Below are positions 14,723-46,718 of a stretch of DNA of 64,000 nucleotides, in pieces (the first letter of the stretch is position 1; every line of letters begins with the position of its first letter). Source of the stretch: Candidatus Omnitrophota bacterium (GTDB taxonomy: Bacteria > Omnitrophota > Gorgyraeia > Gygaellales > Profunditerraquicolaceae); assembly GCA_041662125.1 (NCBI GenBank), contig JBAZTA010000004.1:343-64342 (forward strand). Direction: 5' to 3'. The notes beneath the pieces are model-generated. The model saw only the letters and a program-made list of their open reading frames with translations. It was not told the origin of the DNA and ran no database searches. The translations under genes were made by a program, and so were the position numbers.

Positions 14723-16387
14723 TTACAACTGCTCCGAGGAAACCCTTGAGATTTCTTCAATAGTAGTTACCCCTAACAAGACTTTCGATAACCCGTCTTC
14801 GCTTAAAAGTTTCATGCCGTTTTCCTGCCCTTTTTTACGCAAAGCAAGCGCGGATGCCTGCTGCACGATCATCTCTCTCATTTCATCACTGATCACCAAC
14901 AATTCAAAGATGCCGGCCCGGCCGCGGTAACCAGTGCCTTTACAACTGTCGCATCCTTTCCCGTGATATAATGTCACGTTCGAGGCGTTCGTCAAGCCCC
15001 ATTTTTCTAAGATAACTTTTGACGGCTGATACGGCTCTTTACAATTCTCGCAGATCTTCCTGACAAGCCGCTGCGCCATGACGCCGATTAAACAAGCGGA
15101 AATGAGAAACGGTTCAACTCCCATATTGACGAGCCGGGTCACTGCGGAAGGAGCATCATTGGTATGAAGCGTCGAGAACACTAAATGGCCGGTCAACGCT
15201 GCCTGGACAGCAATAACGGCAGTTTCTAAATCCCTGATTTCCCCCACCATAATCACGTCAGGATCCTGACGCAGTATAGCGCGCAAGCCATTGGCGAAAG
15301 TGATGCCGGCTTTTGCGTTAACCTGGATCTGCCGGATAAGCCCTAAACGATATTCCACAGGGTCTTCAATCGTAATAATGTGCCGGTCGATCGTATTGAT
15401 CGTGGTGAGCGCGGAATAGAGCGTGGTCGTCTTACCGCTTCCCGTCGGACCGGTTGAAAGGATGATGCCGTATGGCTTGGAGATCAAGCCCCGGTAACGA
15501 TCCAGGTCTGTCTGTGTCGCAAAACCCAACCGTTCCAGGCCGATCCTGACTGAAGCGGTATCCAAAAGCCTCATAACCAGGTTCTCTCCGTAAATAGTCG
15601 GAATAGTCGAAACACGGAAATCAATGATCTTTTCATCTACCTTAACCTGGAAATGGCCGTCCTGCGGGACCCTGCTTTCAGCAATATCCATCCCCGCTAA
15701 CACCTTCAAACGGGAAAGGATCGCCGGTTCCCATTCTTTGGGAGGAGAAGGGATCTCGTGCATAATACCATCGATACGGAAGCGTATGCGGGTCATATCC
15801 TGTTCGGGCTCAATGTGAATATCTGAGGCCCGGTCATGGACTGCCTGAGCAATAACCAAATCTACCAACTTAATAATTGAGGTGCCTTCCGAACGTGACT
15901 CTTTGGAAGGGGCAGACTCTTTGGTATTTAACCCCTCAAGCAAGTTTTTAGTAATCTTGCGCTCAACATATAAACGCTGCTGCGCGTCTGCGATATCCTG
16001 AGTGCCGGCATAATAAACTTCAATAGGCATCCCGGTATGCATCTGTATCTGGTCAATGGCGTATAAATCATTCGGGTCAGCCATGGCAACGCGCAGCGTA
16101 TTATTATCGATCTTAACCGGAATTGACTGTGTCTGGCGGGCTAACCCTTCCGGCACGGTTTTAATGAGCTCCTCGTCAAACTCGATATTTTCCAGGCTCA
16201 CATACTTAAAACCCAGCGATCGGGCGATAGTTTCATGCAAGAGAGGGCGGGAAACAATATTCATATCAACCAGGACTTTATCCAGCGGCCGCTTTAACAT
16301 TTTCATTTCCTGGCTTGCCCTGTCTATGTCCGCCTGATTAACCAATCCCGAGCTTAACAATAATCCTTCCAGATCTTTATCATTCAT
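14723..16387 (-). CDS. pilB: PilB/GspE-family assembly ATPase (second copy)
   Basis: N-terminal GSPII_E-N domain. Walker A GPTGSGKTTTLYSAL. C-terminal CxxC...CxxC (CENC...CDSC). Confidence 0.9.
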   Translation of the reverse strand: MNDKDLEGLLLSSGLVNQADIDRASQEMKMLKRPLDKVLVDMNIVSRPLLHETIARSLGFKYVSLENIEFDEELIKTVPEGLARQTQSIPVKIDNNTLRVAMADPNDLYAIDQIQMHTGMPIEVYYAGTQDIADAQQRLYVERKITKNLLEGLNTKESAPSKESRSEGTSIIKLVDLVIAQAVHDRASDIHIEPEQDMTRIRFRIDGIMHEIPSPPKEWEPAILSRLKVLAGMDIAESRVPQDGHFQVKVDEKIIDFRVSTIPTIYGENLVMRLLDTASVRIGLERLGFATQTDLDRYRGLISKPYGIILSTGPTGSGKTTTLYSALTTINTIDRHIITIEDPVEYRLGLIRQIQVNAKAGITFANGLRAILRQDPDVIMVGEIRDLETAVIAVQAALTGHLVFSTLHTNDAPSAVTRLVNMGVEPFLISACLIGVMAQRLVRKICENCKEPYQPSKVILEKWGLTNASNVTLYHGKGCDSCKGTGYRGRAGIFELLVISDEMREMIVQQASALALRKKGQENGMKLLSEDGLSKVLLGVTTIEEISRVSSEQL

Positions 16388-21004: not shown

Positions 21005-22798
21005 CTAATATTCCAATTTACAGGTTATTTCGAACGTTGCCGCAGGGATTGAAGAATATTTATCCGGCTCGCTGGCAACTAAAACAACATCCTTAAAAAA
21101 AGGTGATTCCTCCAGCACCATCTGATACTGCGATAATGCCAGATCCACGATAGTATACTGAGAAACGATCCTGCCGCGCAAACGTATTTCTTTCGGTTCT
21201 TTTGCCGCTTCGGTACTGACCATCGAGAGCACGACATTCTTCGGCGTAATATTGCTAAGCTCTTTAAAAACCCCCCACCAAAGGGGCTGTTTTCCTATGG
21301 CTTTTTCCAAAAGGTCTTTGCGCTGATCTAAGCGTGTTTTCATATCTAAATACCCTCTTACCTGAGCAACCGTCGGTTCCAGGCGCAAAATTTCCTCCTG
21401 GGTCGCCTGAATAAGGCTTTTATACCTGACGTTATTAAGGTAGCTAAACCCGTGCATTACTAAAAATAAAAGCAAGGTTACCGGGAAGAAGAGTCTAAGC
21501 AACAACCGTAAAAAGAGTGTTTTTTGCTCTAACTTTTCAGTATTCGGCAAAAGATTTATTTTCCCGCCGCTGCCTAAACAAAGGCCAAAGGCTACCGCCA
21601 AATGTGGCGCAGCCTGTTCCATTACAAAATCCTGTTTTAAAACTCCTTTTTCGGTCCACCCCTTGATCGTCTTAAGCACATTAAGCCGTTCCACCTTCTT
21701 TAACCGTTCAAGATTATACAAAAAAAACTTATCAAGATTCTTCAAACGGGAGCTGCCGCCGGTAATATACAACTCCTCGATATTTTCGGCTTTAAACGTC
21801 TTGGCGTAATAACTGACGGTACGAGTGATCTCCATGATCAGCCGCTCCAGGGTCGGCCGAAACATCGTCGATATCTGTTCGCCCAGTAAAGCCCCGTAAT
21901 CCGTCAAGAACTCAGTCCGGGACTCGTCTTCCAGAGGAATACCGCAATTACGCTTGATCTTCTCGGCGTCATCAAAGCTTAATTCAATGGTCTGGCTCCC
22001 GGAATCTATTGGTTTTGCCATTGCCCGGGTCAAGTGGTCGCCGCCGACAGGGATATCGCGCATAAATACCAGGTCCCTGCCTTTATAAAAATTGAGCGTT
22101 GTATTATTAGCGCCCACATCAAGCAGCATAACGGTCTTATTCGCGGGTGCCTCGACACAAAAAGACACCAGGTTACCGAGCGCGTCAGGGATAATATTGA
22201 TCGCCACCGGACGGATATTGATATCTTTGAGGAACTGCATCTGCTCATCGAGAGCCAAGCGGTCAACCGCAATACAGGTTACCTGCAGGTTCGGCCCCTT
22301 ATCGTCCTGCCCGCGGCCGGTAATAAAAAAATCAAAAGACACGTTGTTGATATCGACCTGAAAAGGCATCCGTTTCTTCAATTCCAGGCCGATCAACCCG
22401 CGTAAATCTTTTTTATTGATCACCGGGACGCTCAGAGAAAAGACAAATATCCCTTTCCCGGAAATGGCAAGGCGGGCAAAGCGTGTTTTAATGGGGCTCT
22501 CAGCGATAAATTTCTTAATAATATCCTGAATGAGTTTTTTCTTGGCAAGAGCATCTTCCCTGATATCCAAAGGGATGCTGCGGATAACACAATCTGTTAT
22601 CAGGTATCCTTTGCTTATCTTCTGCAGCTGCAAAACCTTGATATGGCTTGAGCCAATGTCAATCCCGATAACATGCTGCCCGGAAGCAATAAAATTCTGG
22701 AAAGACGCAGCAAACACAGTCCAGAAATCATGAGATGACGATTTCGGCTTTGCCGGTTTCACAGCGCCCTGATTTCCCTTCGGTTTCTGATCGCTCAT
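21005..22798 (-). CDS. pilMN: Fused PilM (actin-like ATPase fold) - PilN protein
   Basis: N-terminal PilM block (VIGIDIGSSHIKVLQL...LDVGANNTTL...ITGGSS). After residue ~400, a TM helix (LFLRLLLRLFFPVTLLLFLVM) and a PilN-like periplasmic domain. Confidence 0.75.
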   Translation of the reverse strand: MSDQKPKGNQGAVKPAKPKSSSHDFWTVFAASFQNFIASGQHVIGIDIGSSHIKVLQLQKISKGYLITDCVIRSIPLDIREDALAKKKLIQDIIKKFIAESPIKTRFARLAISGKGIFVFSLSVPVINKKDLRGLIGLELKKRMPFQVDINNVSFDFFITGRGQDDKGPNLQVTCIAVDRLALDEQMQFLKDINIRPVAINIIPDALGNLVSFCVEAPANKTVMLLDVGANNTTLNFYKGRDLVFMRDIPVGGDHLTRAMAKPIDSGSQTIELSFDDAEKIKRNCGIPLEDESRTEFLTDYGALLGEQISTMFRPTLERLIMEITRTVSYYAKTFKAENIEELYITGGSSRLKNLDKFFLYNLERLKKVERLNVLKTIKGWTEKGVLKQDFVMEQAAPHLAVAFGLCLGSGGKINLLPNTEKLEQKTLFLRLLLRLFFPVTLLLFLVMHGFSYLNNVRYKSLIQATQEEILRLEPTVAQVRGYLDMKTRLDQRKDLLEKAIGKQPLWWGVFKELSNITPKNVVLSMVSTEAAKEPKEIRLRGRIVSQYTIVDLALSQYQMVLEESPFFKDVVLVASEPDKYSSIPAATFEITCKLEY

Positions 22799-32464: not shown

Positions 32465-33652
32465 TTACTCGAGATAGGTATAGATTTTCCCTTTATAGTT
32501 ACGCAAAACGTACTTGCCTTTTGCCTGGGAAAGCACATAATTGGAACTGATAGGGATCTTTCCACCGCCACCAGGGCCGTCGATAACATAGGTCGGGACA
32601 GCATACCCTGAAGTATGGCCGCGCAGTTTCTCCATAATATTAATGCCCACTGCCACGGGAGTGCGGAAATGGCCGCTGCCCTTTACCGGGTCACATTGAT
32701 AAATATAATACGGACGAACCCTGATCTTGAGCAGATCATGCATCAGTTTACGCATAATATAGGGCCGGTCATTAATACCCTGCAACAAGACAGTCTGGCT
32801 TCCTAACGGGACCCCTGCTTCAGACAGCATGTCGCAAGCGATCTTACAGCGCCTGGTAATTTCTTTCGGATGGTTAAAATGAATACTCATCCAAATCGGT
32901 GAATACTTCTTCAGTGTGGAGATCAACCCTTCAGTAATACGCTGCGGGAGAGTTACCGGAACCCTGGTACCGATGCGCAAGAATTCGACATGCGGTATCG
33001 CGCGCAGTTTCTTCAGCAGGTCACCCAACACATCATCCTCAAGCAATAAGGGATCGCCTCCGGAAATCAATACATCACGGATCTTTTTATTGCCGCGGAT
33101 ATAATCGAGGGCCGCATCCAGCTTATTTAATGAGCCGACCGCGCCGCTATCTTCCTTTCCCACTAACCTTCTTCTGGTGCAATGGCGGCAATACATAGCA
33201 CATTGTTCAGTAACCAAAAGTAGAATACGGTCCGGGTAGCGGTGCACTAAATGGGGAGCGGGAGAATCACGGTCTTCCGCGCATGGATCAACCATTTCGT
33301 AGGGCCCGATCTGAAATTCACTCAACGTAGGAACTGCCTGGCGCCTGATAGGGCAGCGGGTATCTTCCTGATCGATCAAAGTCGCCCAGTACGGGGTAAT
33401 AGCCATTGCCATTCTCCCCTTGGCATTTTTGAGACCTTCTTCCTCTTCAGGAGTAAGCTTAATAATCTGGCTGATTTGCTCTATCTTGGTAACACGGTTT
33501 TTTAACTGCCACCGCCAATCTTCCCAATCCAGCGGATTAACATCCTTATACAAGCTTATCTGCTGGTAATCCCTGCCCCTTTTTCCCGGCCGGGGGGCTG
33601 TTAAACTTTCTGGCAGTAATTTTTGGCTTTCTGTTACCACCGGATTATTCAT
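32465..33652 (-). CDS. KamA-family radical SAM aminomutase (lysine 2,3-aminomutase-like)
   Basis: Radical SAM CxxxCxxC as CAMYCRHCTRRR (KamA: CSMYCRHCTRRR). KIRDVLISGGDPLL. 395 aa with C-terminal Cys/His residues. Confidence 0.85.
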   Translation of the reverse strand: MNNPVVTESQKLLPESLTAPRPGKRGRDYQQISLYKDVNPLDWEDWRWQLKNRVTKIEQISQIIKLTPEEEEGLKNAKGRMAMAITPYWATLIDQEDTRCPIRRQAVPTLSEFQIGPYEMVDPCAEDRDSPAPHLVHRYPDRILLLVTEQCAMYCRHCTRRRLVGKEDSGAVGSLNKLDAALDYIRGNKKIRDVLISGGDPLLLEDDVLGDLLKKLRAIPHVEFLRIGTRVPVTLPQRITEGLISTLKKYSPIWMSIHFNHPKEITRRCKIACDMLSEAGVPLGSQTVLLQGINDRPYIMRKLMHDLLKIRVRPYYIYQCDPVKGSGHFRTPVAVGINIMEKLRGHTSGYAVPTYVIDGPGGGGKIPISSNYVLSQAKGKYVLRNYKGKIYTYLE

Positions 33653-34652
33653 CTTTTGATTTCCTCCTTTTATACGCGCTCATTAATATCGATTCGATCA
33701 AATCATCATAGGTCATTCCCGCCGCATACGCCATGATCGGGAAATTCGATTCTTTGGGATTAAGCCCGGGCAACGGATTTATCTCCAGGACATAGGGGAT
33801 ATTATCCTCACTTAGCCGTATATCCGTACGGGAAATATCGAGGCAGCCAACCGCCCGATGAGTACGTAACGCGACTTCTTTAATTTTCTTTTCTGTTTCT
33901 CTATCCAGGCGTGCCGGGCAATAGAATGTCGGCGTCAACCCCATTTCGACATTCCCCTGGAATTCTTTCATGCGCCAGGAATAAAAATATTCACCGCTCT
34001 TAGCGCAACTCGAAAAATCTATTTCCAAGATAGGCAAAACTTCTGTTTTACCGTTTTCTAAGACACCGACCGTAAACTCTCTGCCTTCGATAAATTCCTC
34101 TACCAATACTTCCTGCTTATAAAAAGAAATGATTTCATTTGCTTTATCAAAAAGCTCTTGCGGTGAATGGACCACGTTTGATTTATTAATGCCTTTGGCG
34201 GAACCTTCGCAATTCGGTTTGAGGATCAAAGGAAAACGCAAAGAGGGATCGAGCTTTTCATTGCCTTTTACTAAGATCTGGAAAGGCGGCGTGGGAATAT
34301 TTTCCGCTTTCAGGATCTTTTTGGTAAGCGCCTTATTTAAAGCCAGCGCCAACGAAAGGGTATTAGAACCGGTATAGGGAATATTCAAATAATCCAAGAT
34401 CGCCGGGACCTCGGATTCACGGAACTTACCGTGGTTTCCCTCGGCAATATTAAAGACCATATCAGCGCTATGCTTCTTGAAGAAAGAGAATAGGTTTGAA
34501 CGCTCCACATCAACATAGTCGACACTATGCCCCCGGGACCGCAGCGCGGACGTGATCGCGTGGATAGTCTCTTCGGAATCAAATTCGGAATAATAATCCG
34601 CAGGCTTTGTTTCGTCTTCTTTTTTAAGGTTACACGTCAGGGTAATCTTCAC
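33645..34652 (-). CDS. ATP-grasp ligase, D-Ala-D-Ala-ligase-like (copy 1)
   Basis: Ddl-size (335 aa). ATP-grasp motifs FPLILKPNCEGSAKGI, EEFIEGREFTVGVL, YVLEINPLPGL. Confidence 0.75.
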   Translation of the reverse strand: MKITLTCNLKKEDETKPADYYSEFDSEETIHAITSALRSRGHSVDYVDVERSNLFSFFKKHSADMVFNIAEGNHGKFRESEVPAILDYLNIPYTGSNTLSLALALNKALTKKILKAENIPTPPFQILVKGNEKLDPSLRFPLILKPNCEGSAKGINKSNVVHSPQELFDKANEIISFYKQEVLVEEFIEGREFTVGVLENGKTEVLPILEIDFSSCAKSGEYFYSWRMKEFQGNVEMGLTPTFYCPARLDRETEKKIKEVALRTHRAVGCLDISRTDIRLSEDNIPYVLEINPLPGLNPKESNFPIMAYAAGMTYDDLIESILMSAYKRRKSKDE

Positions 34653-34672
34653 CCTGCCCTTCCTTTCCTTTT

Positions 34673-35665
34673 TTACGTAAGATTATAGCGTTTCAAGGCG
34701 CTTCTTAAAATCCTGCCAATAATTTCATTGTACGAAATGCCAAGAGCCTTGGCGACGGCCATAAACACATCTTCCGAAGATAGCGACGGCAGCGGATTGA
34801 TCTCCAAGACATAGGGTTTACCTTTTTCATCAACCCGGAAATCAATCCTGCCAAAATCCTGGCATTCGATCGCGTTATAGGTGTCAAGCGCCAGGCTGCT
34901 TAATTCAGCAGCCAATTCCGGCTTTATTTTTGCCGGGCAGACATATTCTAAAGCATCCGACTTAATATGCCCAAACGTATAGAATTTATCATTAAGTTTT
35001 AATTTCCCGTCGATCTTGATCTGCACGATCGGCATGACTTCCGGAGGGTCGTTGCCGATGATGGCAACGGTAAATTCTTCCCCGCGGATGAATTCCTCAA
35101 CCAGCGCAGGCTGCTTATACGTATTAATCACATACTCAACCTGCTTTTTTAATTCTTCCATATTCTCCACGCGCGAATTATCATTCATCCCTTTCGAAGA
35201 CCCTTCAAACCTGGGTTTAACGATCATAGGAAAACGAGCATGGTCCATATCCGGAAAAGGGTTGTCATCAGGCTTGACTTCAAAAGATTTCGGCGTCCTG
35301 ATATCATCGGCAATAAAGATCTTTTTTGCCATCAGCTTATCAAGCGATAATCCCAAACTCAAGGCGTCAGCGCCGACAAAAGGAATACCCGCCATCTCAA
35401 GCAAAATCGGGACCTGCGACTCACGGTTCCTGCCGGAAATCCCTTCGGAGATATTAAAGACAATGTCAACTTTGAGATCGCTGATATTATCCAAGAGATT
35501 CATTACATTGCCGATCTTCTTTACCTTAAACCCCTGAGACTCAATCGCCTTTGCGATAACATCGATGGTCGAGGGGTGGTCAAATTCGGCATTCGCGTCC
35601 GGAGGATCGCCCTCTTTGAATTCGTAATCAGTTTTTAAATCGTATGTTAAGCCGATTGTTTTCAT
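34673..35665 (-). CDS. ATP-grasp ligase, D-Ala-D-Ala-ligase-like (copy 2, paralog of 33645-34652)
   Basis: FPMIVKPRFEGSSKGM, EEFIRGEEFTVAII, YVLEINPLPSL. 330 aa. Confidence 0.75.
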   Translation of the reverse strand: MKTIGLTYDLKTDYEFKEGDPPDANAEFDHPSTIDVIAKAIESQGFKVKKIGNVMNLLDNISDLKVDIVFNISEGISGRNRESQVPILLEMAGIPFVGADALSLGLSLDKLMAKKIFIADDIRTPKSFEVKPDDNPFPDMDHARFPMIVKPRFEGSSKGMNDNSRVENMEELKKQVEYVINTYKQPALVEEFIRGEEFTVAIIGNDPPEVMPIVQIKIDGKLKLNDKFYTFGHIKSDALEYVCPAKIKPELAAELSSLALDTYNAIECQDFGRIDFRVDEKGKPYVLEINPLPSLSSEDVFMAVAKALGISYNEIIGRILRSALKRYNLT

Positions 35666-37329: not shown

Positions 37330-38301
37330 TTAATTATTGATATCCCTGGATTTCTTAAATAAGTCGAGGAACCGGTCTTCGTATTCCCGGTAGACATTCC
37401 ATTTATCCAGTTCAGCTTTTAATTGATGGGCTTTTGAGATATCCGTCTTTGCATCAACAAAAAGCTTTTCAATTTTTTCTTTCACGGACTGCGGAAGCTT
37501 GGTGAGCTGGCTTAAACTTTTCCTTATCATTTCAATCTCTTCTTCATTGATAGGGGCAGGGGATGCGGAGCCGCCGACTTTTAAGAAATCCATCAGCTTG
37601 TTGATTTGTTCCTCTACCCCATGGATCTGTTCAACCAGGCCGGTGAAATCTATCTGCAGGTTAATGATCTTGCCGACAGTCTCCAAAAGGGCAAGCGAAG
37701 CACGGGGGTTCTCGATCTGAATAGTGTACAGAGGGATTTCACCTAAAAGGCAGATCCCATCCAAACCTTCTCGTTTTGCCAGGCCTAAAAACAGGCCATT
37801 CAAACCGCTGATCTGGCCTTCGGATAATACCTGAAAATCGAACTTTTTCAAACCGGCGTTGAGCTGCGGCGACGTCGCGGTTAACCATACGTTCGGCGCT
37901 TGGTTATGGTCAATGGGCTGCGGCATAGCAGCAAAACCGATCACCATCTTGACTTTATATGCCTTGGCCAAAGAAATGATCCGTTTACAGTATTCTTCGG
38001 CCTGTTCTAAATCCGGCTGCGAATCACTGGCAAAGATGATCAGGTCATTTTTACCCGTTTTATTCTTCCAGAAATAAAATTTGCTTTTCGGCAACTCCGG
38101 CAACCGCAAAATTCCGTCTACAACATTACTTCCCGTTAAATAAAAAAAATCTTCCGGGGGGATCTCTGCGAATTCCGAAGCCATGAGCTTCTCAATAAGA
38201 TACGTTGCCGCTTTGATCGCGACCTCTCCCATTCCGGGCCATGCTACAATTAAATACGGGCTCTTCAGCCGCGGTTTTTTATGTACCGTAATACCTTCCA
38301 T
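37330..38301 (-). CDS. PAC2-family protein (COG1938/DUF75)
   Basis: LIVAWPGMGEVAIKAATYLIEKL and the later GLNGLFLGLAKREGLDGICLLGEIPLY match the PAC2 family pattern G.PG.G.VG..A, then GLL.G.A...G. Recognition is by pattern only. Confidence 0.5.
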   Translation of the reverse strand: MEGITVHKKPRLKSPYLIVAWPGMGEVAIKAATYLIEKLMASEFAEIPPEDFFYLTGSNVVDGILRLPELPKSKFYFWKNKTGKNDLIIFASDSQPDLEQAEEYCKRIISLAKAYKVKMVIGFAAMPQPIDHNQAPNVWLTATSPQLNAGLKKFDFQVLSEGQISGLNGLFLGLAKREGLDGICLLGEIPLYTIQIENPRASLALLETVGKIINLQIDFTGLVEQIHGVEEQINKLMDFLKVGGSASPAPINEEEIEMIRKSLSQLTKLPQSVKEKIEKLFVDAKTDISKAHQLKAELDKWNVYREYEDRFLDLFKKSRDINN

Positions 38302-38334: not shown

Positions 38335-39459
38335 CTAAAATTTAAAATCTGTTAAAAACTTCTCTAAGACTACCGTTCCCTGATAAAGGTTATCCAGCGA
38401 AACATATTCATTACTGATATGGGCGCAACCTTCGGAACCAAAACCCGTTGCCACCGCCGGAATTGACTGCTCCTGAAAGAACGTAATGACGGTCGCTCCT
38501 TCTGAACCGCAAATCCTCGGTTTTATCTTACAGGCGCGCATTGCCGCAGTCAAATATTTTACCAACGGATGCCCTTGATCGATACAATACGGTTTTTGGA
38601 TCCCTTCAACTTCTATTACGAATTTCCGGCTGTGCTTCTTAACAATATCTTTTACCATGCGCAAAAGAGAACCGGCCTCTGTCCCGGGCAAAAACCGGAA
38701 ATCAAGCTCAAGTTCACACCAATCGGCAACCACATTGACTTTATCACCGCCCTTAATGGTTCCGACATTGAGCGTCGGAGGCAACAAATACCGGTTTTTT
38801 CTAAAACGCATTTTCCTGCTTTTCAACTCTGCAACTATCCTGACCGCGGCATCAATAGCGTTATCGCCGCGCCACGGATAAGCACCATGAGCTCTTTTGC
38901 CTTCAAGTTTGACCTTGACGTGCAAAAGCCCCTTCTGGGCGACAATGATCTCAAATTCTTCTGTATCAAGCACGACAGCCGCGTCTACTTTGATTATACT
39001 CTTTTTAAGCAAGGGAATCAATCCCCAGGTAGACCCGCTTTCTTCGTCAGCTGTGGCAGCAAGCACCAGATTATAATACAAACCTGCCTTATTTTCAACA
39101 ATACTATGTATTGCTTCTACTGCGCAGGCAAGGTTTCCTTTACAATCGGTTGCACCGATGCCATAGAGTTTATTTTGCACAACCACGCCGGCAAAAGGGT
39201 CACAACGCCATTTTCTGCCGGCAGGAACCGTATCTAAATGCGGAGTTACCAGTAATGAATGGTGCGTATCCTTACCCAGTAAATACGCTATCACATTAGG
39301 ACGGTTTTTCTTAAATGCAACTATTTTTACGCGCAGGCCCAATTTTTCAAGATACGTTTTTAGGAAACAGGCAATTGCCGTTTCATTACCCGGAGGATTT
39401 TGAGAATCAATTTTTATTAACTGCCGAGTAAGATCTATCAATCGTTTCTTATTGATCAT
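38335..39459 (-). CDS. M20-family metallopeptidase/deacylase (ArgE/DapE-like)
   Basis: HLDTVP, GATDCKG, ATADEESGS and a dimerisation-domain insert. 374 aa. Confidence 0.8.
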   Translation of the reverse strand: MINKKRLIDLTRQLIKIDSQNPPGNETAIACFLKTYLEKLGLRVKIVAFKKNRPNVIAYLLGKDTHHSLLVTPHLDTVPAGRKWRCDPFAGVVVQNKLYGIGATDCKGNLACAVEAIHSIVENKAGLYYNLVLAATADEESGSTWGLIPLLKKSIIKVDAAVVLDTEEFEIIVAQKGLLHVKVKLEGKRAHGAYPWRGDNAIDAAVRIVAELKSRKMRFRKNRYLLPPTLNVGTIKGGDKVNVVADWCELELDFRFLPGTEAGSLLRMVKDIVKKHSRKFVIEVEGIQKPYCIDQGHPLVKYLTAAMRACKIKPRICGSEGATVITFFQEQSIPAVATGFGSEGCAHISNEYVSLDNLYQGTVVLEKFLTDFKF

Positions 39460-39487: not shown

Positions 39488-42309
39488 TTAGAACGCGTGG
39501 CTCAAACCCACCCAAAAATGCGTGCTCTCTTTTGAGTCATTAATAGGCCGGGCAATATCAAAGCGAAGCACCACCTTTTCCAGAAACCCGACGATATCAA
39601 AATGCAGGCGCAGCCCTACCCCTGCGTTTTTCTTAAAGTTGGCTGATCCAAAATCGTTATACCAGGCCTTAGCGATATCAAAAAACCCGACTGCCTGGAT
39701 CTTATTCAGGCAAAAAACATTATCCAAGAAATACATTTTCATATCGCCGCAGAGCGGAAAACGGTATTCCGCTGACCCTAACATCATGCGCGAGCCCTCT
39801 ACCGTTTCCCTGCCATACCCTCGCAAACCATCCGCGCCGCCGAGATCAAAAAGGCCCTTTTCACCCGAACCTCCCCATCCAACCTTCAGGCGTGTCGCTA
39901 ATTTCTGTGAAAACTTAGGTAAAAGCAAACGGTAAGTATCTAATTCTAAACTCGTGCGCCAAAAAGATTCATTTCCTCCCAGGAAGTGGCCTGCGAATTC
40001 CTGCTGAGGGATTAATTTCCAGCCATAATCCGGGTCTGAATACGGGCCATACCGGCACAACGAAGCAGCCAACCCCAGGATTGTTTCATCAGTCTTCCTA
40101 TAGACGATATTACGCGCGTCTTCTGCGCCATTAACACTGACCTGCTGGTCAAGTTTTTGATCCTTCAAAAGATACAAGGTAACATGATCATTCAGGTCAA
40201 AAATACCATAGCGCGCCGGCCATAATTCGCGCCGGATATACAGCTTGCCCCCAGATACATCTTGACGGCCCAAACGATACTGGCGGTTAAAAACATCCAC
40301 TCCTACAGATACCTGTTTATTAAAAAGATGGGGAAATTCATAGCCTGCCGTATATTCTGATTCTTTATCATTAAAATTATAGAGAGAAGAAACTTTCACT
40401 AATCCGTCATAGGGTTTTGCCGCAGATGCCGCCGCCCCAAGCCACTGTCCACGCAGATCAGGGCCAAGAACCACATTATAAGATCCATCCGGCATAAGCG
40501 AAGGTATCTCATAGGCGAAAAAGTACCAGGGGACTGGTTTAAGGAAAATATTCCTCGGCCACGAATTGTTTACCCGGTCTAAATCCAGGATGATCTTTTT
40601 ATCAGGGTCTACAACGACTTTTGAAACAGTTTTCCCCCCGGTAAGAGGTATGGGTATATTTTTCCCCGCCCCATCCCACGGGAAAATGCTCTCTGTCCCG
40701 TCATGATAGGTGATCTTTGTTTCTACCGGCATTACTATCAAACCGCGGTTTTCTAAAATAAATGCGCCGCGGGCAACCGGCTTAACAGCGTAATCGCAAG
40801 CCTGCTTAGTCTTAAGCCATCCGTGAAAGAACAGCGTAAGATCTTTCCCCGACTCTTCATTACAGATCCTCATAAAATCATCAAAACTAAAATTCTTAAA
40901 CCTGAATTCCCCGGTATAACGTTTCATAACACCTTCAAATACCTGGCTGCCAACCTCGGCATTGAGCATCTCTAAAACAGCTGCCCCTTTGCCATAGGTC
41001 AAAGCAAATATTGATGACGGCTCCTGAAAACTCGAAAGGTCGCTCACAACCGGCCCGTCGAGGCCGTTTTTCGCTAAATACAGGTAGCGAGCGACTGTTG
41101 AGCCGTGAAAAGAAAAGTTGGGAACAAGCCATCGTATCCCTGGCGGTAAGGTCAAAACTTGAGCATCAGGCCCATAGGTATGCTCTAAATAGCGCAATAT
41201 CCAATATGAATTCATACCTTCATCAAGGAACATCTCCCTGTATTCATCAGAACCAATGATATTATAAAACCACTGATGGCCGGTTTCATGCGCTATCAAG
41301 AAATTAAAATACCGCTCTAAGAATCCCGGCACGCGATAAACACGGGTATCAATAAATATAAAACAGGAAGACTGGCATCCGCCGTAGCCTAAATAACTAG
41401 GGACTATGGAGAATGCTTTATACGGATATGACCCAAAACGCTCGGCGTAATACCGCATTAATGAGGCCGCGTACGAAGCCGCAGCAACAGCTCTTTTTTC
41501 GTCACCTTTAAGATAATATGATTGGATCGTCACCTCACCGGAAGCTATGGAATGGACTAAAAAAGATTTGCTGACTCCCAAAGCAAAATCCCTGACCGGG
41601 AATTCAGTCTCCATCATCAGGGTTTTTGTCCCGTCAGGATTGTCTGTTTTGGTTTTTACCAAAGCCGTAGAAGCTACAACTTCATCCTGAGGAAGCGTAA
41701 GGGTAACTTTGTAGTAAGAGGCTTCACTGAAATACGGCTGATGATAGATATAAAAAGGATAATTGTGCCAGCCGGACTTATCCACTACGCTTAAAAGCGG
41801 ATACCAGCGGGCAAGGCTGGTGATCCCCTGATGCCAGCCGAACCTGCCGTACGCATGGGGGATATCTACCTTAAAATCTAAGATGATCTCTTGTGAATCT
41901 CCGGGTTTAAGCGATGAATCAAGTCCAACCTTAAGAATTGTCTGATCATCCCCTTCCATACGATAAGAAAGAACATTGCCGCGAGAGGATATTTTTTCTA
42001 TTTTTAAATCGCCTCCCTGAAACCCTTCAGGGAAAGGATCCATCTTAAAATAACCGGCATAGCGGTACATAAAGCCAATTTCTTTCTTTGTATACCGGCG
42101 ATGAGGATAAACGTGAAAATACAGGGCGTCAAGGGCCGTATCGGAATTATTGGTAAATATTACTTTCTGGCTTGCGGTGATCGTGTGATTTTTGGTATCA
42201 AGCCGTGCGGTGATCTCATACCGGGGACACTCAGCGGCGAAAGAAAGCAAAAAGTTAAAGAGGCAGAAAAAAAGTGAAAAAAATAATACCACCTTTAAGC
42301 TCTTATTCA
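39488..42309 (-). CDS. M1-family (aminopeptidase N-like) zinc peptidase domain fused to a C-terminal Omp85/surface-antigen beta-barrel
   Basis: Signal peptide MNKSLKVVLFFSLFFCLFNFLLSFAAE (probable start near 42309; the longest ORF extends to 42481). Gluzincin motif HETGHQWFYNIIGSDEYREMFLDEGMNSYW, i.e. HExxH...W..N..(18)..E. C-terminus DLGGADGLRGYGRE...GVGLRLHFDIVG...WVGLSHAF ends in Phe like outer-membrane barrels. Confidence 0.7.
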
Positions 42310-42347
42310 TGCTTATCCTCATTCTATAATCCCACAATTGTGATCCC

Positions 42348-44300
42348 TTAGTTCTCAAGTTCCAAAGGATTATAATTATAATACGCGAACAACGTATACA
42401 CCGTGCCTGAAACAGCTCCTGTCTTTTTTCCCGCCGGAGTAGACCATCCATGCCCGGTATCAACGGATTCCGCAGAAGCATACGGCAGGCATCCTTCCCC
42501 CTGGCCTGAAGGCGAAGGGCTAGAAATTATCAACGTACACAAATCGACCATATATTCATTTGCTTTCTGATCATAGACTTTGGCCTTGCCCAGCATATCT
42601 TTTTTCTTATAATAATTTGACATTATTTTAAACGACAAGATCATCTGAGCGGTCCATTCGGTAGAAATCACTCCTCCCCGGGAGAGATGCCTCTGTGGAG
42701 CAAAATCAAAGCCTTTGATCTTAATCGCTTCGCCTGACGGACCGACCGAGGGGACTTCGACCACGCAATTTTCCTCGGCAAATTCAATGATTTTATCGGG
42801 ATGCATCCTATTCTCTTCCAATTTTTCAGGGCCCAGCGCCGCGATCGCCCAGGCATACGTATCGGTAGCGATCGTTGAATCTCCTTTACCGCGGATAATC
42901 GGAATATCTACCTTATCATAAATATGCCCGATCAACCAACGAAACACCCTGTCCCGCGCCTCTGCGTACAACTGATTTTTGGTTATGGTATACAACATAT
43001 CGAAAAACGCGTAAGCATCCAGGTTATGCTCGGTAGAATACCAGCTGATATTAGGGCCGCCGCGGATGCCGCCTTCTTCATCTTGGCCCTGCAAAGTAAT
43101 CATCACCTGAGCGATTTCCTCAGCTAACCGCATATATTTGGTATCCTGTGTTTTCTTTGTATAGTGCAACACCGCGATCCCCAGCCAGATATTAGGGCCG
43201 CTGTGCACAATATATTCTGCGGGGCTGCCGTCTTTAGCATCATAGGCATTGACAAATAACCCCTCTCTTCGCTTTGCTTTGTGCGCGTAGAATTCCAATG
43301 TTTTCCTGGCGCGCTCATAATCGGAAAAGTTCGTGTAAGCCTGAATTGCCAGAGACTGGTCATACGTAAACGCCCAGCCGTCAACTTGCGCATCGCCTTC
43401 AAAGCTCATCACCAGGCCTGTCCGGGGATTTTGATGCAACGCCAGCCATTGATACATTTTATTGAAATTTTCTTTCTGCAAAACAGATTTCTTCTCATCT
43501 AAACGCAATAATTCTTCCGTCACCGTGGTCTCACGGTGTTGCAAATCGATCAGCTTCTCCTGGAGCGGAGCTTTTTCCTGCCTCAACTGCTCAATTAATT
43601 TCCTAAGCTCTTCTACTTTCTTGCCGGTCTTGGCCTCCTCTAATTTAGTACCTTCTTCAAGAAAAGTTTTCTCATCTTCCACGGTCTTAATACGCACCTG
43701 TAACGCTTCTATCTTACGCTGCAAATCTTCTTTATCTTTATTAATGGAGGTGATCTTTTGTTTGGCGATAATTGATTCCTGCAAGATATTAACCAGCTGA
43801 CTGATCAAACTTTTATTGCCCTGAATGAGTTTTGCGTTGACATAGCTGTTAAAAACGAGTGCTGCGGAAAAAATAAGAATTATCGAATAGACTACAGGAA
43901 TGAATAATTTTTTCATCCACACATAACGCATGAGCCGAGTATTACCGCTGCGTTCGATGGAATCATAATTTAAACCGATAAGGTACTTATTGGCATTAAC
44001 CGCGACATCTTTGATCCAGGAAACGCTTGCCCGGGCAAAAACCGGCTGCCGGCCTAAAGGGCTTTCGATTTCTAAGATAACCCGGGTTGATTGGCTCTTC
44101 ATCGTCTGAATCAACTCAGAGGAAAGGTTATTAACGCGCAGGCACAAGCCTCCTTTTCCTATATCATTCGTAAAACCCTGCAGCCAAACAGAAAGAAAAG
44201 ACTGCTCATCGGCAGCACCTACTAACCGGAACTGAACCGGAAATACCGAATCAAGCCTGACATATTTTCGACGGTTGAGAGCTTCGTGATCAATCTCCAT
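42348..44300 (-). CDS. PilZ - TM - coiled-coil - (alpha/alpha)6 glycoside-hydrolase/epimerase-like domain protein
   Basis: N-terminal RRKYVRL and DIGKGGLCL (PilZ). One TM segment (LFIPVVYSIILIFSAALVF). An approximately 120-aa coiled coil. The C-terminal 350 aa carry a six-hairpin-like repeat pattern; the family is uncertain. Confidence 0.55.
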   Translation of the reverse strand: MEIDHEALNRRKYVRLDSVFPVQFRLVGAADEQSFLSVWLQGFTNDIGKGGLCLRVNNLSSELIQTMKSQSTRVILEIESPLGRQPVFARASVSWIKDVAVNANKYLIGLNYDSIERSGNTRLMRYVWMKKLFIPVVYSIILIFSAALVFNSYVNAKLIQGNKSLISQLVNILQESIIAKQKITSINKDKEDLQRKIEALQVRIKTVEDEKTFLEEGTKLEEAKTGKKVEELRKLIEQLRQEKAPLQEKLIDLQHRETTVTEELLRLDEKKSVLQKENFNKMYQWLALHQNPRTGLVMSFEGDAQVDGWAFTYDQSLAIQAYTNFSDYERARKTLEFYAHKAKRREGLFVNAYDAKDGSPAEYIVHSGPNIWLGIAVLHYTKKTQDTKYMRLAEEIAQVMITLQGQDEEGGIRGGPNISWYSTEHNLDAYAFFDMLYTITKNQLYAEARDRVFRWLIGHIYDKVDIPIIRGKGDSTIATDTYAWAIAALGPEKLEENRMHPDKIIEFAEENCVVEVPSVGPSGEAIKIKGFDFAPQRHLSRGGVISTEWTAQMILSFKIMSNYYKKKDMLGKAKVYDQKANEYMVDLCTLIISSPSPSGQGEGCLPYASAESVDTGHGWSTPAGKKTGAVSGTVYTLFAYYNYNPLELEN

Positions 44301-44303
44301 AAA

Positions 44304-46718
44304 CTACTTTTTCCTTTCTACAACCACTTTCTGCTTAATTTTCTGGGCAAGAAGCTCATATATTTTCTTAAAATCAGCGTATTGTTCCTGAGGGATGAGC
44401 GTTTTCTTTAATTCAATTGACTGTTTAAAAGAAATACGCTTATTTTTATACGCGTATCCCACGCTGAAACGAAACCAACTATTATCCTCAAAGATATTAT
44501 CCGGCAGGAACTTTACGTTAAAATCAGCGGGGAGCTGGATCTCCATCAGAGTCTCTTTATTATTCAAGAACCCGAAATCCAACGCATACCTGCGGCTATC
44601 TTGAGCGACTAATGAAAGGTCCAGGTACGCCAGCTGAGGCAATATACGCAATGCCCCGGCGATGGTCGCGTATTCGCTGCCGCTAAAAGCATACTCAAGC
44701 ACTAACGGCTTATTGAAATCATCCGTATTCTGTATAGCATATTTTCCCAAACGGGCCCCTACGGATATTTCCTGTATTTTTTCTTCCAGGTGCTGGCGGA
44801 TCAATTCCGGAGGCGTATACAAAACCCAATACCGCTGCATCTGGTTATAAACCCCCGCAGCAGAAATTATTTTTTCTCCCGTAATACGGTCATCGCTTTG
44901 TATTGCAAGCGACAAATCCTGCCTGAGCTGATTATGCACCGCTTGATAGAGCGGCGTCACGAGGACCTCAAAACCCTCATCTTTGCATACTAAGACTATC
45001 CGTGACTGGTCATCCTGGGGCAAATCGCCAAACGCGCACGTCTCAGCAGTAGGATCAACAAAAACTAATTTTCCCTCCCATACAACCGCCGCGATGGCAT
45101 GATTAAAAAGTATCGAAGGAAAATCTTCACTGGCGTTATAGGAATCTTTTGTCGCGATAAGCACCGGATAGGCTTCAATACCGACCTCTCGCAGCATCGT
45201 CACTAACAAGACCGCTTTATCCTTGCAATCGCCATATTTATTCTGAAAAATATCCGCTGCCTTATGCGGCTCATACCCTGCCTGGCCGTATTCAACCGCG
45301 ACATAACGGATCTTCGTAGCGGCAAAGCTGCAGAGCGCGCGTATTTTCTCTTCGGCAGAAACGGCATGAGACAATAATTCCTTCACCTTATTCTTAATCG
45401 CAGCGTCCGCCTGGATCTTATCCCGGGCAAGCTGCCACCACCAATCATAAATCTCCTTCCACGACTCAAAAGTTGAAACAAGAAACGACGGATTAATCTC
45501 TGAAGCCGCAGGCATATCAGATTCCGGGATCACCTGAGGAATATCCTTGAATTGCCACGAATACACCAGCGCGCCTTTTTCCTCACTGATCACCGGTTCC
45601 AGAGAAGCACCGAAATCATTATATTTTTCATTGATCTTTTTAATATGCAGCTCTGTATTTTTCGGTATGGTAATGGAAAATTTCGCCTGGATCACAGGCT
45701 CAGAGGTCTGGAGGGGATACGGGAAAGCAAAATCTTTTTTATTCACCAACCGGTTACGCGAGATCTTTACTTTATATTCAATGATAGAGCCTTCGGCTAT
45801 CTCAGGAAAAGAAATAATAAAGATCCGCGCGTTGCTGTAAAGCGGGAAATTAAGGTATTTGGAGACATCGCGCATATGGCGGCTGCCGACATCGACCAGA
45901 GTACCGTCAGGCTTAATGGTCCGCGCGTATTCCACCTGAAGTTTTTCGTACGTCGAATCGTACTCTATATGCGCCTCGGAAAACGCATCCTTACCCCTCT
46001 CATTTAAGATCTTAATCAGATAATGCTCATAGGAGACCTGGGTATTTTCCGCAGAAACTTCGATACTTTCGTCGGCAAGCAGGATCAATGCGCCTGCCTG
46101 AGGGTATTTCTCCGACGACGGCGCGCTGACCAAGATCGTGTTGATCTCGGGGCTGACATCTTTTATATGCAGGCCTTCCACCTGCTTTTCTATTTGACGG
46201 ATACGCTCACCCGCGAGGGAGCTATAGGCCTCAAGGGCAGGCAAAGACAAGCCGGCTATCTTTTTATACGATTCAAGGGCGCTGTCAAAAAGATTGAGTT
46301 TTTCACAGGTTAAACCGCGGTAATATAAATATTGGGCATCTGAGTTAAGTTCCTGCTGATTAAGAATCCCCAGGGCATCAGTATAACTGCCCATCATATA
46401 GTATGAGATCGCCAGCCACTTCTTCGCTGCGGCAGTAGGCAGCCGCTTAAACTCTCCCGCAGCTTCCAGGAATTTTCCCTGACGGTAATACAATTCCCCC
46501 AGCTCAAACCCTATAGTTTCGGAATTGCTGCCGGCAGCAAGCAAACTCTTATACATATCCACCGCTTTCTGATAATCTAACTGGGATGCCTGGGCATAAA
46601 TCCTGGCTTGCTCCAACTCAGATTTCTTAGGAGTGCAGCCGCAAAAAGTTAAAAGCACAAGAGCATATACAAATGACCTTAAGAATCTCTTTCGTATGAT
46701 TTCTTTGGGTTTATTCAT
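44304..46718 (-). CDS. Transglutaminase-like cysteine protease family lipoprotein with N-terminal TPR and DUF3857-like region
   Basis: Lipobox LLTFCGC. TPR repeats. Transglutaminase core QNKYGDCKDKAVLLVTMLREVGIEAYPVLI with the catalytic Cys. Confidence 0.7.
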   Translation of the reverse strand: MNKPKEIIRKRFLRSFVYALVLLTFCGCTPKKSELEQARIYAQASQLDYQKAVDMYKSLLAAGSNSETIGFELGELYYRQGKFLEAAGEFKRLPTAAAKKWLAISYYMMGSYTDALGILNQQELNSDAQYLYYRGLTCEKLNLFDSALESYKKIAGLSLPALEAYSSLAGERIRQIEKQVEGLHIKDVSPEINTILVSAPSSEKYPQAGALILLADESIEVSAENTQVSYEHYLIKILNERGKDAFSEAHIEYDSTYEKLQVEYARTIKPDGTLVDVGSRHMRDVSKYLNFPLYSNARIFIISFPEIAEGSIIEYKVKISRNRLVNKKDFAFPYPLQTSEPVIQAKFSITIPKNTELHIKKINEKYNDFGASLEPVISEEKGALVYSWQFKDIPQVIPESDMPAASEINPSFLVSTFESWKEIYDWWWQLARDKIQADAAIKNKVKELLSHAVSAEEKIRALCSFAATKIRYVAVEYGQAGYEPHKAADIFQNKYGDCKDKAVLLVTMLREVGIEAYPVLIATKDSYNASEDFPSILFNHAIAAVVWEGKLVFVDPTAETCAFGDLPQDDQSRIVLVCKDEGFEVLVTPLYQAVHNQLRQDLSLAIQSDDRITGEKIISAAGVYNQMQRYWVLYTPPELIRQHLEEKIQEISVGARLGKYAIQNTDDFNKPLVLEYAFSGSEYATIAGALRILPQLAYLDLSLVAQDSRRYALDFGFLNNKETLMEIQLPADFNVKFLPDNIFEDNSWFRFSVGYAYKNKRISFKQSIELKKTLIPQEQYADFKKIYELLAQKIKQKVVVERKK

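Follow-up and report, generated by a model that had tools for sequence, protein, structure and literature searches.

A conserved M1 peptidase-Omp85 barrel fusion in Omnitrophota as a putative outer-membrane-anchored, periplasm-facing zinc enzyme

Introduction

Omp85 proteins constitute a universal scaffold for assembly and translocation at the outer membrane. A survey by Heinz and Lithgow (2014) divided Omp85/TpsB proteins into ten subfamilies, including the POTRA-less 'Patatin-like', 'Metallo', 'WD40-like' and 'noNterm' groups (PMC4104836). PlpD, the sole enzyme-Omp85 fusion that has been studied experimentally, carries a patatin domain that is located in the periplasm, after it had long been believed to be secreted (PMC11116518), and this work suggested that evolution found a further use for the Omp85 scaffold, in which enzymes are kept at the inner side of the outer membrane. 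Here, we describe a gene from a Candidatus Omnitrophota bacterium (contig JBAZTA010000004.1) that joins an M1-type zinc peptidase module to an Omp85 barrel. The window, i.e. the whole stretch of DNA that was analysed, comprises 64,000 nucleotides (nt), and all coordinates are positions within it.

Domains that resemble M1 peptidases have been recorded next to Omp85 barrels before. The domain of the 'Metallo' subfamily is a metallophosphoesterase (PF00149), and the M1 peptidase family PF01433 appears in none of the domain tables of the survey (PMC4104836). In its Table S3, most of the WD40-like proteins have Phyre2 'best aminopeptidase' matches to structures of M1 enzymes (1z5h, 4kxd and 3qnf), so that a gluzincin-like domain beside an Omp85 barrel has already been logged, and this aminopeptidase-like part is not discussed in the main text of the survey (PMC4104836). 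The database search for the architecture that had been proposed in a first-pass annotation of the window recovered homologue families in several phyla, and no paper describing the M1-Omp85 fusion was found in the literature.

A single, conserved gene encodes the fusion protein

The fusion gene lies on the minus strand at 39488..42310 and encodes 940 amino acids (aa) followed by a stop codon at 39488-39490; the features of the gene and its neighbours given below are all on this strand. The longest open reading frame (ORF) around it extends from 39488 to 42481, and the real start is the ATG at 42310; a GAGGA Shine-Dalgarno sequence (42316-42320) precedes it at a spacing of 5 nt, and it is positioned 37 nt past the stop of the upstream gene. 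The start at 42309 given in the first-pass annotation is one base off. That annotation had also proposed a three-part layout of signal peptide, catalytically intact M1 gluzincin module and C-terminal Omp85 barrel, and this layout is borne out: every motif it quoted is present in the translated ORF (HETGH-X18-E, Y439, LGGADGLRGYG at aa 823-833 and the terminal SHAF), and the Pfam families Peptidase_M1 and Omp85 (PF01103) are each matched well above their gathering scores. NCBIfam returned sub-threshold matches only, to the PepN, LTA4H and BamA models, and the protein therefore belongs to none of these equivalogs.

Could two adjacent genes, one for an M1 peptidase and one for an Omp85 protein, have been merged by a frameshift or an assembly error? 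This possibility, which had been raised as a way to overturn the first-pass reading, is virtually inconceivable; no point in its support was found, and the candidate was rejected. The ORF runs without interruption, a 'Candidatus Omnitrophota' metagenome-assembled genome at NCBI encodes an identical protein, and the best 120 clusters of 345 hits, drawn from NCBI, JGI, ENA and Logan assemblies, all comprise proteins of approximately 900-1000 aa with both Pfam domains. The same architecture recurs in 80 species-level genomes and in a second phylum. In addition, AlphaFold2 (AF2) folds the full-length protein as one confident chain, based on a 67-sequence alignment, with a predicted local distance difference test score (pLDDT) of 90.1 and a predicted template modelling score (pTM) of 0.89, as the structure prediction suggested in the earlier annotation was meant to examine for the peptidase and the barrel together. 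The M1-Omp85 fusion is real and conserved.

The chain begins with a Sec signal peptide (42233..42310, aa 1-26, MNKSLKVVLFFSLFFCLFNFLLSFAA), which was recognised by sequence and hydropathy, ends in an SFA-A cleavage-type site and agrees with the signal peptide claimed before. It appears as an N-terminal helix of low pLDDT in the AF2 model, and no lipobox was found within aa 1-26. The model then places domain I at residues 30-266, domain II at 271-499, a 60-residue all-beta domain at 507-567, a linker at 568-610 and 16 barrel strands at 611-936.

The M1 peptidase module lacks domain IV and mostly carries Gln for the exopeptidase Glu

Domain I, the N-terminal beta-sandwich of M1 enzymes (41507..42232, approximately aa 27-268), is supported by the AF2 strands, phmmer and Foldseek, with the phmmer alignment to LTA4H beginning at aa 101. 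It is followed by the catalytic thermolysin-like domain II (40811..41506, approximately aa 269-500), in which PF01433 matches aa 332-498 with 74.2 bits (E 1.5e-20, gathering score 27.7) and which is modelled by AF2 as helices. By phmmer and by the family profile, aa 100-510 align to solved M1 enzymes, namely aminopeptidase A (E 6.5e-25), PSA, ERAP1/2, IRAP, LTA4H and tricorn factor F3. When the full model was compared with the PDB by Foldseek, the top 50 matches were M1 enzymes only, with IRAP and ERAP at E 1e-25 over approximately 590 aligned columns, a span that covers domains I and II and also the small beta-sandwich domain III.

Conservation was assessed in an alignment of 67 orthologues with 46-83% identity. 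The zinc-binding and catalytic motif HETGH-X18-E (41219..41290, aa 341-364) has exactly 18 residues between HETGH (aa 341-345) and E364, so that the spacing that M1 enzymes require, on which the first-pass annotation had made its claim depend, is kept. Tyr439 (40994..40996, motif YGKG), which corresponds to the transition-state-stabilising Tyr of M1 enzymes, aligns to the Tyr of the ISYSKGS motif of aminopeptidase A and PSA. H341, E342, H345, E364 and Y439 are invariant in all 67 sequences, and this invariance indicates that zinc site, general base and transition-state Tyr are under selection. We infer from these residues that the M1 module is catalytically competent and would have peptidase activity.

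The position that governs exopeptidase specificity gives a different picture. In glutamyl aminopeptidase (aminopeptidase A), the corresponding strand reads GAMEN, and the Glu of the GXMEN motif binds the free amino group of the substrate (10.1101/2023.05.30.542994). The aligned strand of the window protein is GGCQS (41369..41383, aa 310-314) and thus departs from the strict GXMEN motif of family M1, with Gln at the Glu position; across the 67 orthologues, 58 have Q in this column, 8 have E and a single one has N. The module is therefore clearly an M1-fold gluzincin, yet classical aminopeptidase specificity is not assured.

Capping of the active site by a helical domain IV is typical of long M1 enzymes, although it is not universal. 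In the AF2 model of the fusion protein this domain is absent, and after domain III the chain enters the linker and the barrel. M1dr is a two-domain M1 enzyme that also lacks domain IV (10.1101/2023.05.30.542994). The stand-alone proteins most closely related to the module belong to the short M1 metallopeptidase subfamily, are secreted and comprise about 500 aa, and a tblastn search against plasmids likewise returned stand-alone short M1 metallopeptidases only. As a whole, the protein shares its architecture with no characterised M1 enzyme, as had been anticipated when its architecture was called non-standard.

A beta-domain and a conserved linker stand where POTRA domains would be expected

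The small all-beta domain (40601..40810, aa 501-570) that follows domain II is the equivalent of M1 domain III, based on six strands and zero helices in AF2 and on Foldseek matches to ERAP and IRAP. A POTRA domain at this position, for which a profile search had been proposed earlier, was sought and not found: the Pfam scan gave no PF07244 match between peptidase and barrel, a scan of aa 499-620 alone gave no match of any kind even at E 10, and neither AF2 model contains a beta-alpha-alpha-beta-beta unit. The assignment of aa 501-570 as a POTRA domain was rejected on the all-beta fold and the empty Pfam scan.

Domain III is connected to the barrel by an aromatic-rich linker (40481..40600, aa 571-610) that contains NNSWPR followed further on by KPVPWYFFAYEIP. 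Its mean majority frequency is 0.65, and N581, N582, W584, V593, Y596, Y600 and P603 are near-invariant. The only linker helices in AF2 are four residues long, and none would be long enough to span the barrel lumen.

The C-terminal region is a BamA/TamA-type barrel with a conserved lid-lock

The Omp85 barrel (39491..40480, aa 611-940) is matched by PF01103 at aa 645-937 with 59.5 bits (E 5.2e-16, gathering score 24), covering profile positions 14-322 of 325. Sixteen strands were predicted in two independent AF2 runs, one of the full-length protein and one of aa 491-940 (pLDDT 88.8), and Foldseek of the latter model gave TamA or BamA for all of the top 50 matches at a probability of 1.00 (4c00 at 1.2e-9; 4n74 with a TMt of 0.63). 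The Omp85 barrel expected from the first reading thus holds, and so does the test by strand count, while the region is about 330 aa rather than the roughly 300 aa estimated at that time. No second Omp85 barrel was found with the barrel profile of the fusion family in the window or in the 84 loci, the stretches to which this search refers.

Both elements of the Omp85 lid-lock formed by L6 and strand 13 (compare PMC11358297) are present. The L6 motif LRGY (39815..39826, aa 829-832) lies between strands 11 and 12; L829, R830 and G831 do not vary, and 64/67 sequences have Y or F at position 832. The FxDxG motif of strand 13 (39671..39685) has the family consensus FFDxG, with F876 invariant, D878 in 65/67 and G880 in 64/67; the window protein itself reads FFDIA and has Ala at 880. 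The chain ends in a beta-signal-like GLSHAF, and the terminal residue F940 is shared by 66 of the 67 orthologues.

Conservation is unevenly distributed over the two faces of the barrel. Periplasmic turn T3 (40184..40222, aa 697-709, WPARYGIFDLNDH) is unusually long with 13 residues and, as LWPARYGIFDLND, represents the most conserved inter-strand segment, at a mean majority frequency of 0.80 compared to 0.41-0.71 for the extracellular loops. R693, L696, W697, P698, N707 and H709 are invariant in or near this turn, and lower conservation is seen in the extracellular loops apart from L5 and L6. This pattern is consistent with a conserved docking surface on the periplasmic face, and T3 is a candidate site at which the peptidase module could dock.

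Orientation and possible function at the outer membrane

The strand topology of BamA and TamA is well established and allows the modelled barrel to be oriented. As the LRGY loop between strands 11 and 12 is L6, the strand parity of BamA puts the start of strand 1 (aa 611) at the periplasmic rim, so that the N-terminal module would be periplasmic as made. Furthermore, the L6 Arg and the strand-13 Asp are kept in two clades, that of Omnitrophota and that of Gemmatales, from which it follows that the lumen is likely plugged by L6. Together with the periplasmic patatin domain of PlpD, these features lead us, with moderate confidence, to regard the protein as an outer-membrane-anchored M1 zinc peptidase that faces the periplasm; the architecture, the conserved catalytic residues, the barrel type and the lack of POTRA domains are established from the sequence and the models, whereas side of the membrane, activity and substrates are deduced.

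According to this reading, a single polypeptide would be exported by Sec, and its C-terminal 330 residues would fold in the outer membrane as a 16-stranded BamA/TamA-type barrel. The N-terminal 570 residues would form the M1 zinc metallopeptidase of domains I-III without a capping domain IV, and would occupy the place that the POTRA domains hold in BamA, i.e. the periplasmic face beneath the barrel. The conserved 40-residue linker would join the two, with the peptidase probably docked on the conserved periplasmic turns. The main role of the barrel would be to anchor the protein permanently in the outer membrane, and the enzyme could cut peptides or unfolded polypeptide ends beside the inner leaflet. 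Likely purposes would be periplasmic peptide scavenging or the turnover of envelope proteins.

Alternatively, the peptidase could be threaded outward during or after barrel assembly in a type V-like manner and act as an extracellular, cell-bound enzyme in nutrient acquisition or in interactions with host or prey, analogous to AaaA. The order of the two parts, with the enzyme as an N-terminal passenger and the barrel at the C-terminus, is that of autotransporters, the conserved 40-residue linker is long enough for a barrel crossing, and pilus and secretin machinery encoded in the window is consistent with a surface-active lifestyle. However, the barrel is a 16-stranded Omp85 barrel with TamA and BamA as best folds and not a 12-stranded autotransporter barrel, its lumen-occupying L6 motif is conserved, and the linker offers no lumen-spanning helix. 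The passenger would be a three-domain globular zinc enzyme of 570 aa instead of a beta-helix, the extracellular loops besides L5 and L6 are comparatively poorly conserved, and the type Vd secretion model has been overturned for PlpD (PMC11116518). Surface display is consequently less likely than a periplasm-facing enzyme, and we consider it unlikely overall. The first-pass annotation had left open whether the barrel tethers the peptidase to the outer membrane or passes it through in the fashion of two-partner or autotransporter systems; tethering agrees with the data, and passage is unlikely in view of the lid-lock, the missing long helix and the periplasmic position of the PlpD enzyme.

Perhaps the barrel is more than an anchor. 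The zinc protease BepA acts at the β-barrel assembly machinery (BAM), and one could imagine a covalent BamA-BepA, in which a BamA-like lateral gate is active and the built-in gluzincin degrades stalled or misassembled outer-membrane proteins or digests imported polypeptides. All Omp85 hallmarks are retained, including the L6 Arg, the strand-13 Asp and a short strand 16, which would be needless for a mere anchor. It is exactly at strand 1 that the peptidase takes the place of the POTRA domains, and the YFFxYEIP stretch of the aromatic-rich linker resembles a beta-signal-like segment, recalling the lid of PlpD that is bound to strand 1. Against this stand the absence of the POTRA domains that receive substrates in BamA, the retention of lid-lock motifs also in Omp85 proteins whose function is unknown (PMC11358297), and the tendency of M1 enzymes to be exopeptidases on short peptides. 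Such an active machine appears distinctly improbable. The same low expectation applies to an extended, speculative version, in which an outer-membrane machine would engage and digest polypeptides: stalled outer-membrane proteins, or imported foreign proteins or peptides, would be captured at the lateral gate or lumen and passed to the attached gluzincin, with coupling across the periplasm to a c-di-GMP-sensing PilZ protein of the inner membrane in the clade of the window. If true, this machine would represent a new functional class of Omp85 proteins common to Omnitrophota, Gemmatales and several candidate phyla.

Several points weigh against the favoured reading of an anchored, periplasm-facing peptidase. 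With Gln in 58/67 of the Omnitrophota sequences, classical aminopeptidase activity is uncertain, and an endopeptidase activity or another target could apply. Without domain IV, substrate selection is unlike that of any characterised long M1 enzyme. The conservation of the complete set of lid-lock motifs and the short last strand could mean that the barrel does more than anchor. Finally, aminopeptidase autotransporters that are tethered at the surface do exist, as shown by AaaA (PMC3426542).

The fusion is spread over Omnitrophota, Planctomycetota and several candidate phyla

A scan that used one genome per GTDB species recovered 80 loci with the fusion, most of them with record titles naming Omnitrophota. 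Approximately 25 of the 80 are third-party annotation (TPA) bins titled 'uncultured Planctomycetales' or 'Planctomycetia', and a few have other labels. Genes in the 'uncultured Planctomycetales bacterium' TPA binchicken bins (L005, L025, L030, L033-L036 and others) are 43-82% identical to their Omnitrophota orthologues and share their synteny, and these titles look like placeholder taxonomy.

In addition, 1.84 billion representatives were searched exhaustively with HMMER, and 1,419 proteins were matched at E <= 1e-30. Of the 149 best-ranked representatives, 36 have the M1 module plus this barrel, and another 36, of 860-1030 aa, have the M1 module followed by a C-terminal region that Pfam did not recognise in those scanned. 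These divergent regions end like outer-membrane proteins (...RWSIGF, ...GISF), and hhalign against the barrel profile of the fusion family gave a probability of 98.2% (E 3e-14). Fusions with such divergent barrels come from Bipolaricaulota/Acetothermia, Zixibacteria, KSB1 and WOR-3. A sister clade with M1 and Omp85 in proteins of approximately 980-1070 aa occurs in Gemmatales/Gemmataceae (Planctomycetota), where HEXXH-X18-E, the exopeptidase Glu (NGNEC), the invariant L6 Arg and a strand-13 motif FYDVG are found. The spread over more than 120 full-length orthologue clusters and several clades indicates an established family and not an oddity of a single genome.

Annotation pipelines name the fusion proteins 'M1 family aminopeptidase', 'BamA/TamA family outer membrane protein' or hypothetical. 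The divergent proteins from Bipolaricaulota, Zixibacteria, KSB1 and WOR-3 (P0156, P0161, P0163 and relatives, approximately 880-1000 aa) are annotated solely as 'M1 family metallopeptidase', and their barrel is missed in most precomputed annotations.

Genomic context and a possible link to cyclic di-GMP

Directly upstream of the fusion gene lies a gene for a PilZ protein of 650 aa (42348..44300), in which a PilZ domain (aa 9-127) and one transmembrane helix (132-150) precede a coiled coil of about 130 residues and an alpha-rich domain of about 360 residues that is predicted to be periplasmic. The latter has a faint GH76-like signal only, and a sequence search found no relative of it in the PDB. 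The layout of a cytoplasmic PilZ domain, one transmembrane helix and a large periplasmic part resembles that of Alg44, and the protein represents an uncharacterised family of putative trans-membrane cyclic di-GMP (c-di-GMP) receptors. Its PF07238 match is barely above threshold (24.3 bits vs a cut-off of 22.5); the RxxxR motif is present (R11-KYV-R15), and the (D/N)xSxxG motif reads DIGKGG, with Gly for Ser. Further upstream, a transglutaminase-like protein of 804 aa (44304..46718) combines a lipoprotein-type signal, TPR, DUF3857, a transglutaminase-like core and DUF3858. Both neighbours had been named before, and the domain analysis confirms them and adds detail.

The three genes are separated by gaps of 3 nt (transglutaminase-like and PilZ genes) and 37 nt (PilZ and fusion genes). 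The first-pass annotation had placed the fusion gene at the end of its operon, which proved wrong: a gene for an M20/M25/M40 peptidase without signal peptide (38335..39459) starts 28 nt past its stop, followed by PAC2, HAD and other genes, and no terminator-like site was found between the genes ahead of 35705-35680 in a promoter and terminator scan that was otherwise uninformative. When ORFs nested in longer minus-strand ORFs are set aside, every ORF of 150 aa or more in the 64 kb is encoded on the minus strand. The window (1-64000) shows negative GC skew throughout and forms a single array of co-directional genes, between which the gaps are very short. In such an array, adjacency on the same strand says little about operons.

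Upstream neighbours were counted in the 67 loci whose upstream sequence was long enough. In 31 of them, the PilZ protein is encoded upstream, and its occurrence follows the identity of the fusion protein: 23/23 at 50% identity or more, 5/24 at 45-50% and 3/20 below 45%. The transglutaminase-like protein was found upstream in 27/67. An HhH-GPD DNA glycosylase, a cytoplasmic protein, is found next to the fusion gene more often than any other neighbour (47/84 loci), and its gene often lies between the PilZ and fusion genes. Many relatives show this arrangement, for example L001 (8384-9019) and L002 (8367-8999), and the gene is missing from the window, where only the 37 nt at 42311-42347 separate the two. 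Approximately 43 loci have another conserved neighbourhood, composed of an AsnC regulator, an aminotransferase, a small cytoplasmic TPR protein, M1-Omp85, YjbQ, PfkB and Era. Neighbour clustering across the loci identified no universal partner gene. With a DNA glycosylase as the commonest neighbour, synteny in this lineage is no guide to function, and the gene order around the fusion seems to be largely a matter of phylogenetic inertia.

These counts bear on the c-di-GMP-controlled surface-remodelling module that the first-pass annotation had suggested, in which the inner-membrane PilZ protein would regulate or partner with M1-Omp85 and the transglutaminase-like lipoprotein across the envelope. 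All three are predicted envelope proteins, judging from the PilZ-transmembrane-periplasmic layout and the lipoprotein-type signal, their genes are closely spaced, and in a few loci whose other neighbours differ (L004, L052-L054, L067) the PilZ gene is still directly upstream. However, below 50% identity the PilZ gene is upstream in only 8/44 loci, the transglutaminase-like gene is upstream in 27/67, and the alternative neighbourhood and the intervening HhH-GPD gene speak against the module, as do the co-directional window and the marginal PilZ score with its imperfect second motif. The case is weak, being built on adjacency, and although functional coupling is possible, it is unsupported; we regard such a module as very unlikely.

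Other features of the window

Type IV pilus or type II secretion genes are found at 639-2372, 5530-6798, 14723-16387 and 21005-22798, where two T2SSE+MshEN ATPases and a secretin are encoded and PilM and PilN domains are combined in one ORF. Between the genes for a T2SSE ATPase and the secretin, an ORF of 1065 aa (2332-5529, minus strand) encodes a signal peptide and a repetitive, coiled-coil-like protein with 18% E, 16% K, 15% Q and 12% A, for example in the repeated EEEEKRLAAEKQEQEKQKQ; it has no Pfam match, and its DNA has a strong AT skew of -0.40. The sole Pfam match of a 686-aa ORF at 7803-9863 is a marginal one to DUF6782, a putative metallopeptidase family.

At 32465-35665, tandem ATP-grasp genes resembling D-Ala-D-Ala ligases (33645-34652 and 34673-35665) are followed by an ORF of 395 aa, and related loci keep these three genes together; the 395-aa ORF has a counterpart in L001 and L002 that contains Radical_SAM and LAM_C domains and is lysine-2,3-aminomutase-like. 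The gene at 37330-38301 encodes a PAC2-family protein (proteasome assembly chaperone 2 family) in a bacterium, and the run of M20 peptidase, PAC2 and HAD hydrolase genes is kept in about 20 related loci.

Comparison with known systems

Several described systems share parts of this architecture. The barrel resembles BamA and TamA, which are its best Foldseek folds (4c00, 4n74 and BamA entries), in having 16 strands, the L6 motif (L/V)RG(Y/F), the strand-13 FxDxG and a C-terminal aromatic residue. It differs from them in the absence of POTRA domains and in an N-terminus that is an enzyme. The BamA equivalog TIGR03303 of NCBIfam is matched with 32.7 bits, far below its cut-off of 297, and the five POTRA domains are missing.

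Like the short two-domain M1 metallopeptidases, represented by Deinococcus M1dr (PDB 6a8z) and by proteins of Firmicutes and Bacteroidota annotated as 'M1 family metallopeptidase', the peptidase part has no domain IV. Those enzymes, which are either soluble or anchored by a lipid, retain the Glu (GGMEY), whereas the fusion adds domain III, the linker and the barrel and mostly has Gln. For M1 enzymology, it therefore provides a natural variant without domain IV and mostly with Gln in place of the exopeptidase Glu.

AaaA of Pseudomonas aeruginosa is likewise an aminopeptidase that is covalently held at the outer membrane by its own C-terminal barrel (PMC3426542). It is, however, an M28 enzyme on a 12-strand type Va barrel and surface-exposed, in contrast to an M1 enzyme on a 16-strand Omp85 barrel that is probably periplasmic. 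The fusion also falls outside the definition of classical type Va autotransporters, with no PF03797 match, a 16-strand Omp85 barrel and no long linker helix. With the WD40-like and Metallo subfamilies of Omp85 it has in common that POTRA domains are absent and that the N-terminal domain is non-canonical (PMC4104836). WD40-like proteins carry a TolB-like propeller (PF07676), for which the fusion protein has no Pfam match and no counterpart in AF2, and any homology between their peptidase-like domain and the M1 module of the fusion is hypothetical.

The closest resemblance is to PlpD and FplA, formerly assigned to 'type Vd secretion', in which one chain also combines an N-terminal hydrolase with a C-terminal 16-strand Omp85 barrel and in which the enzyme is most likely periplasmic (PMC11116518). 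A key difference is the enzyme itself, which is a patatin phospholipase there and an M1 zinc peptidase here, with a peptide and not a lipid as the likely substrate. The definition of PlpD-like proteins as patatin, POTRA and Omp85 does not apply either, as neither PF01734 nor PF07244 is matched. A second, unrelated enzyme class on the same barrel in place of the POTRA domains would make the case of PlpD a general principle and not a one-off. As a single gene that could be expressed in E. coli, the fusion would offer a tractable entry to envelope proteolysis or peptide feeding in phyla with hardly any cultured members. Based on these comparisons, the M1-Omp85 fusion is an uncharacterised variant of the theme that PlpD established, namely an enzyme carried on an Omp85 scaffold.

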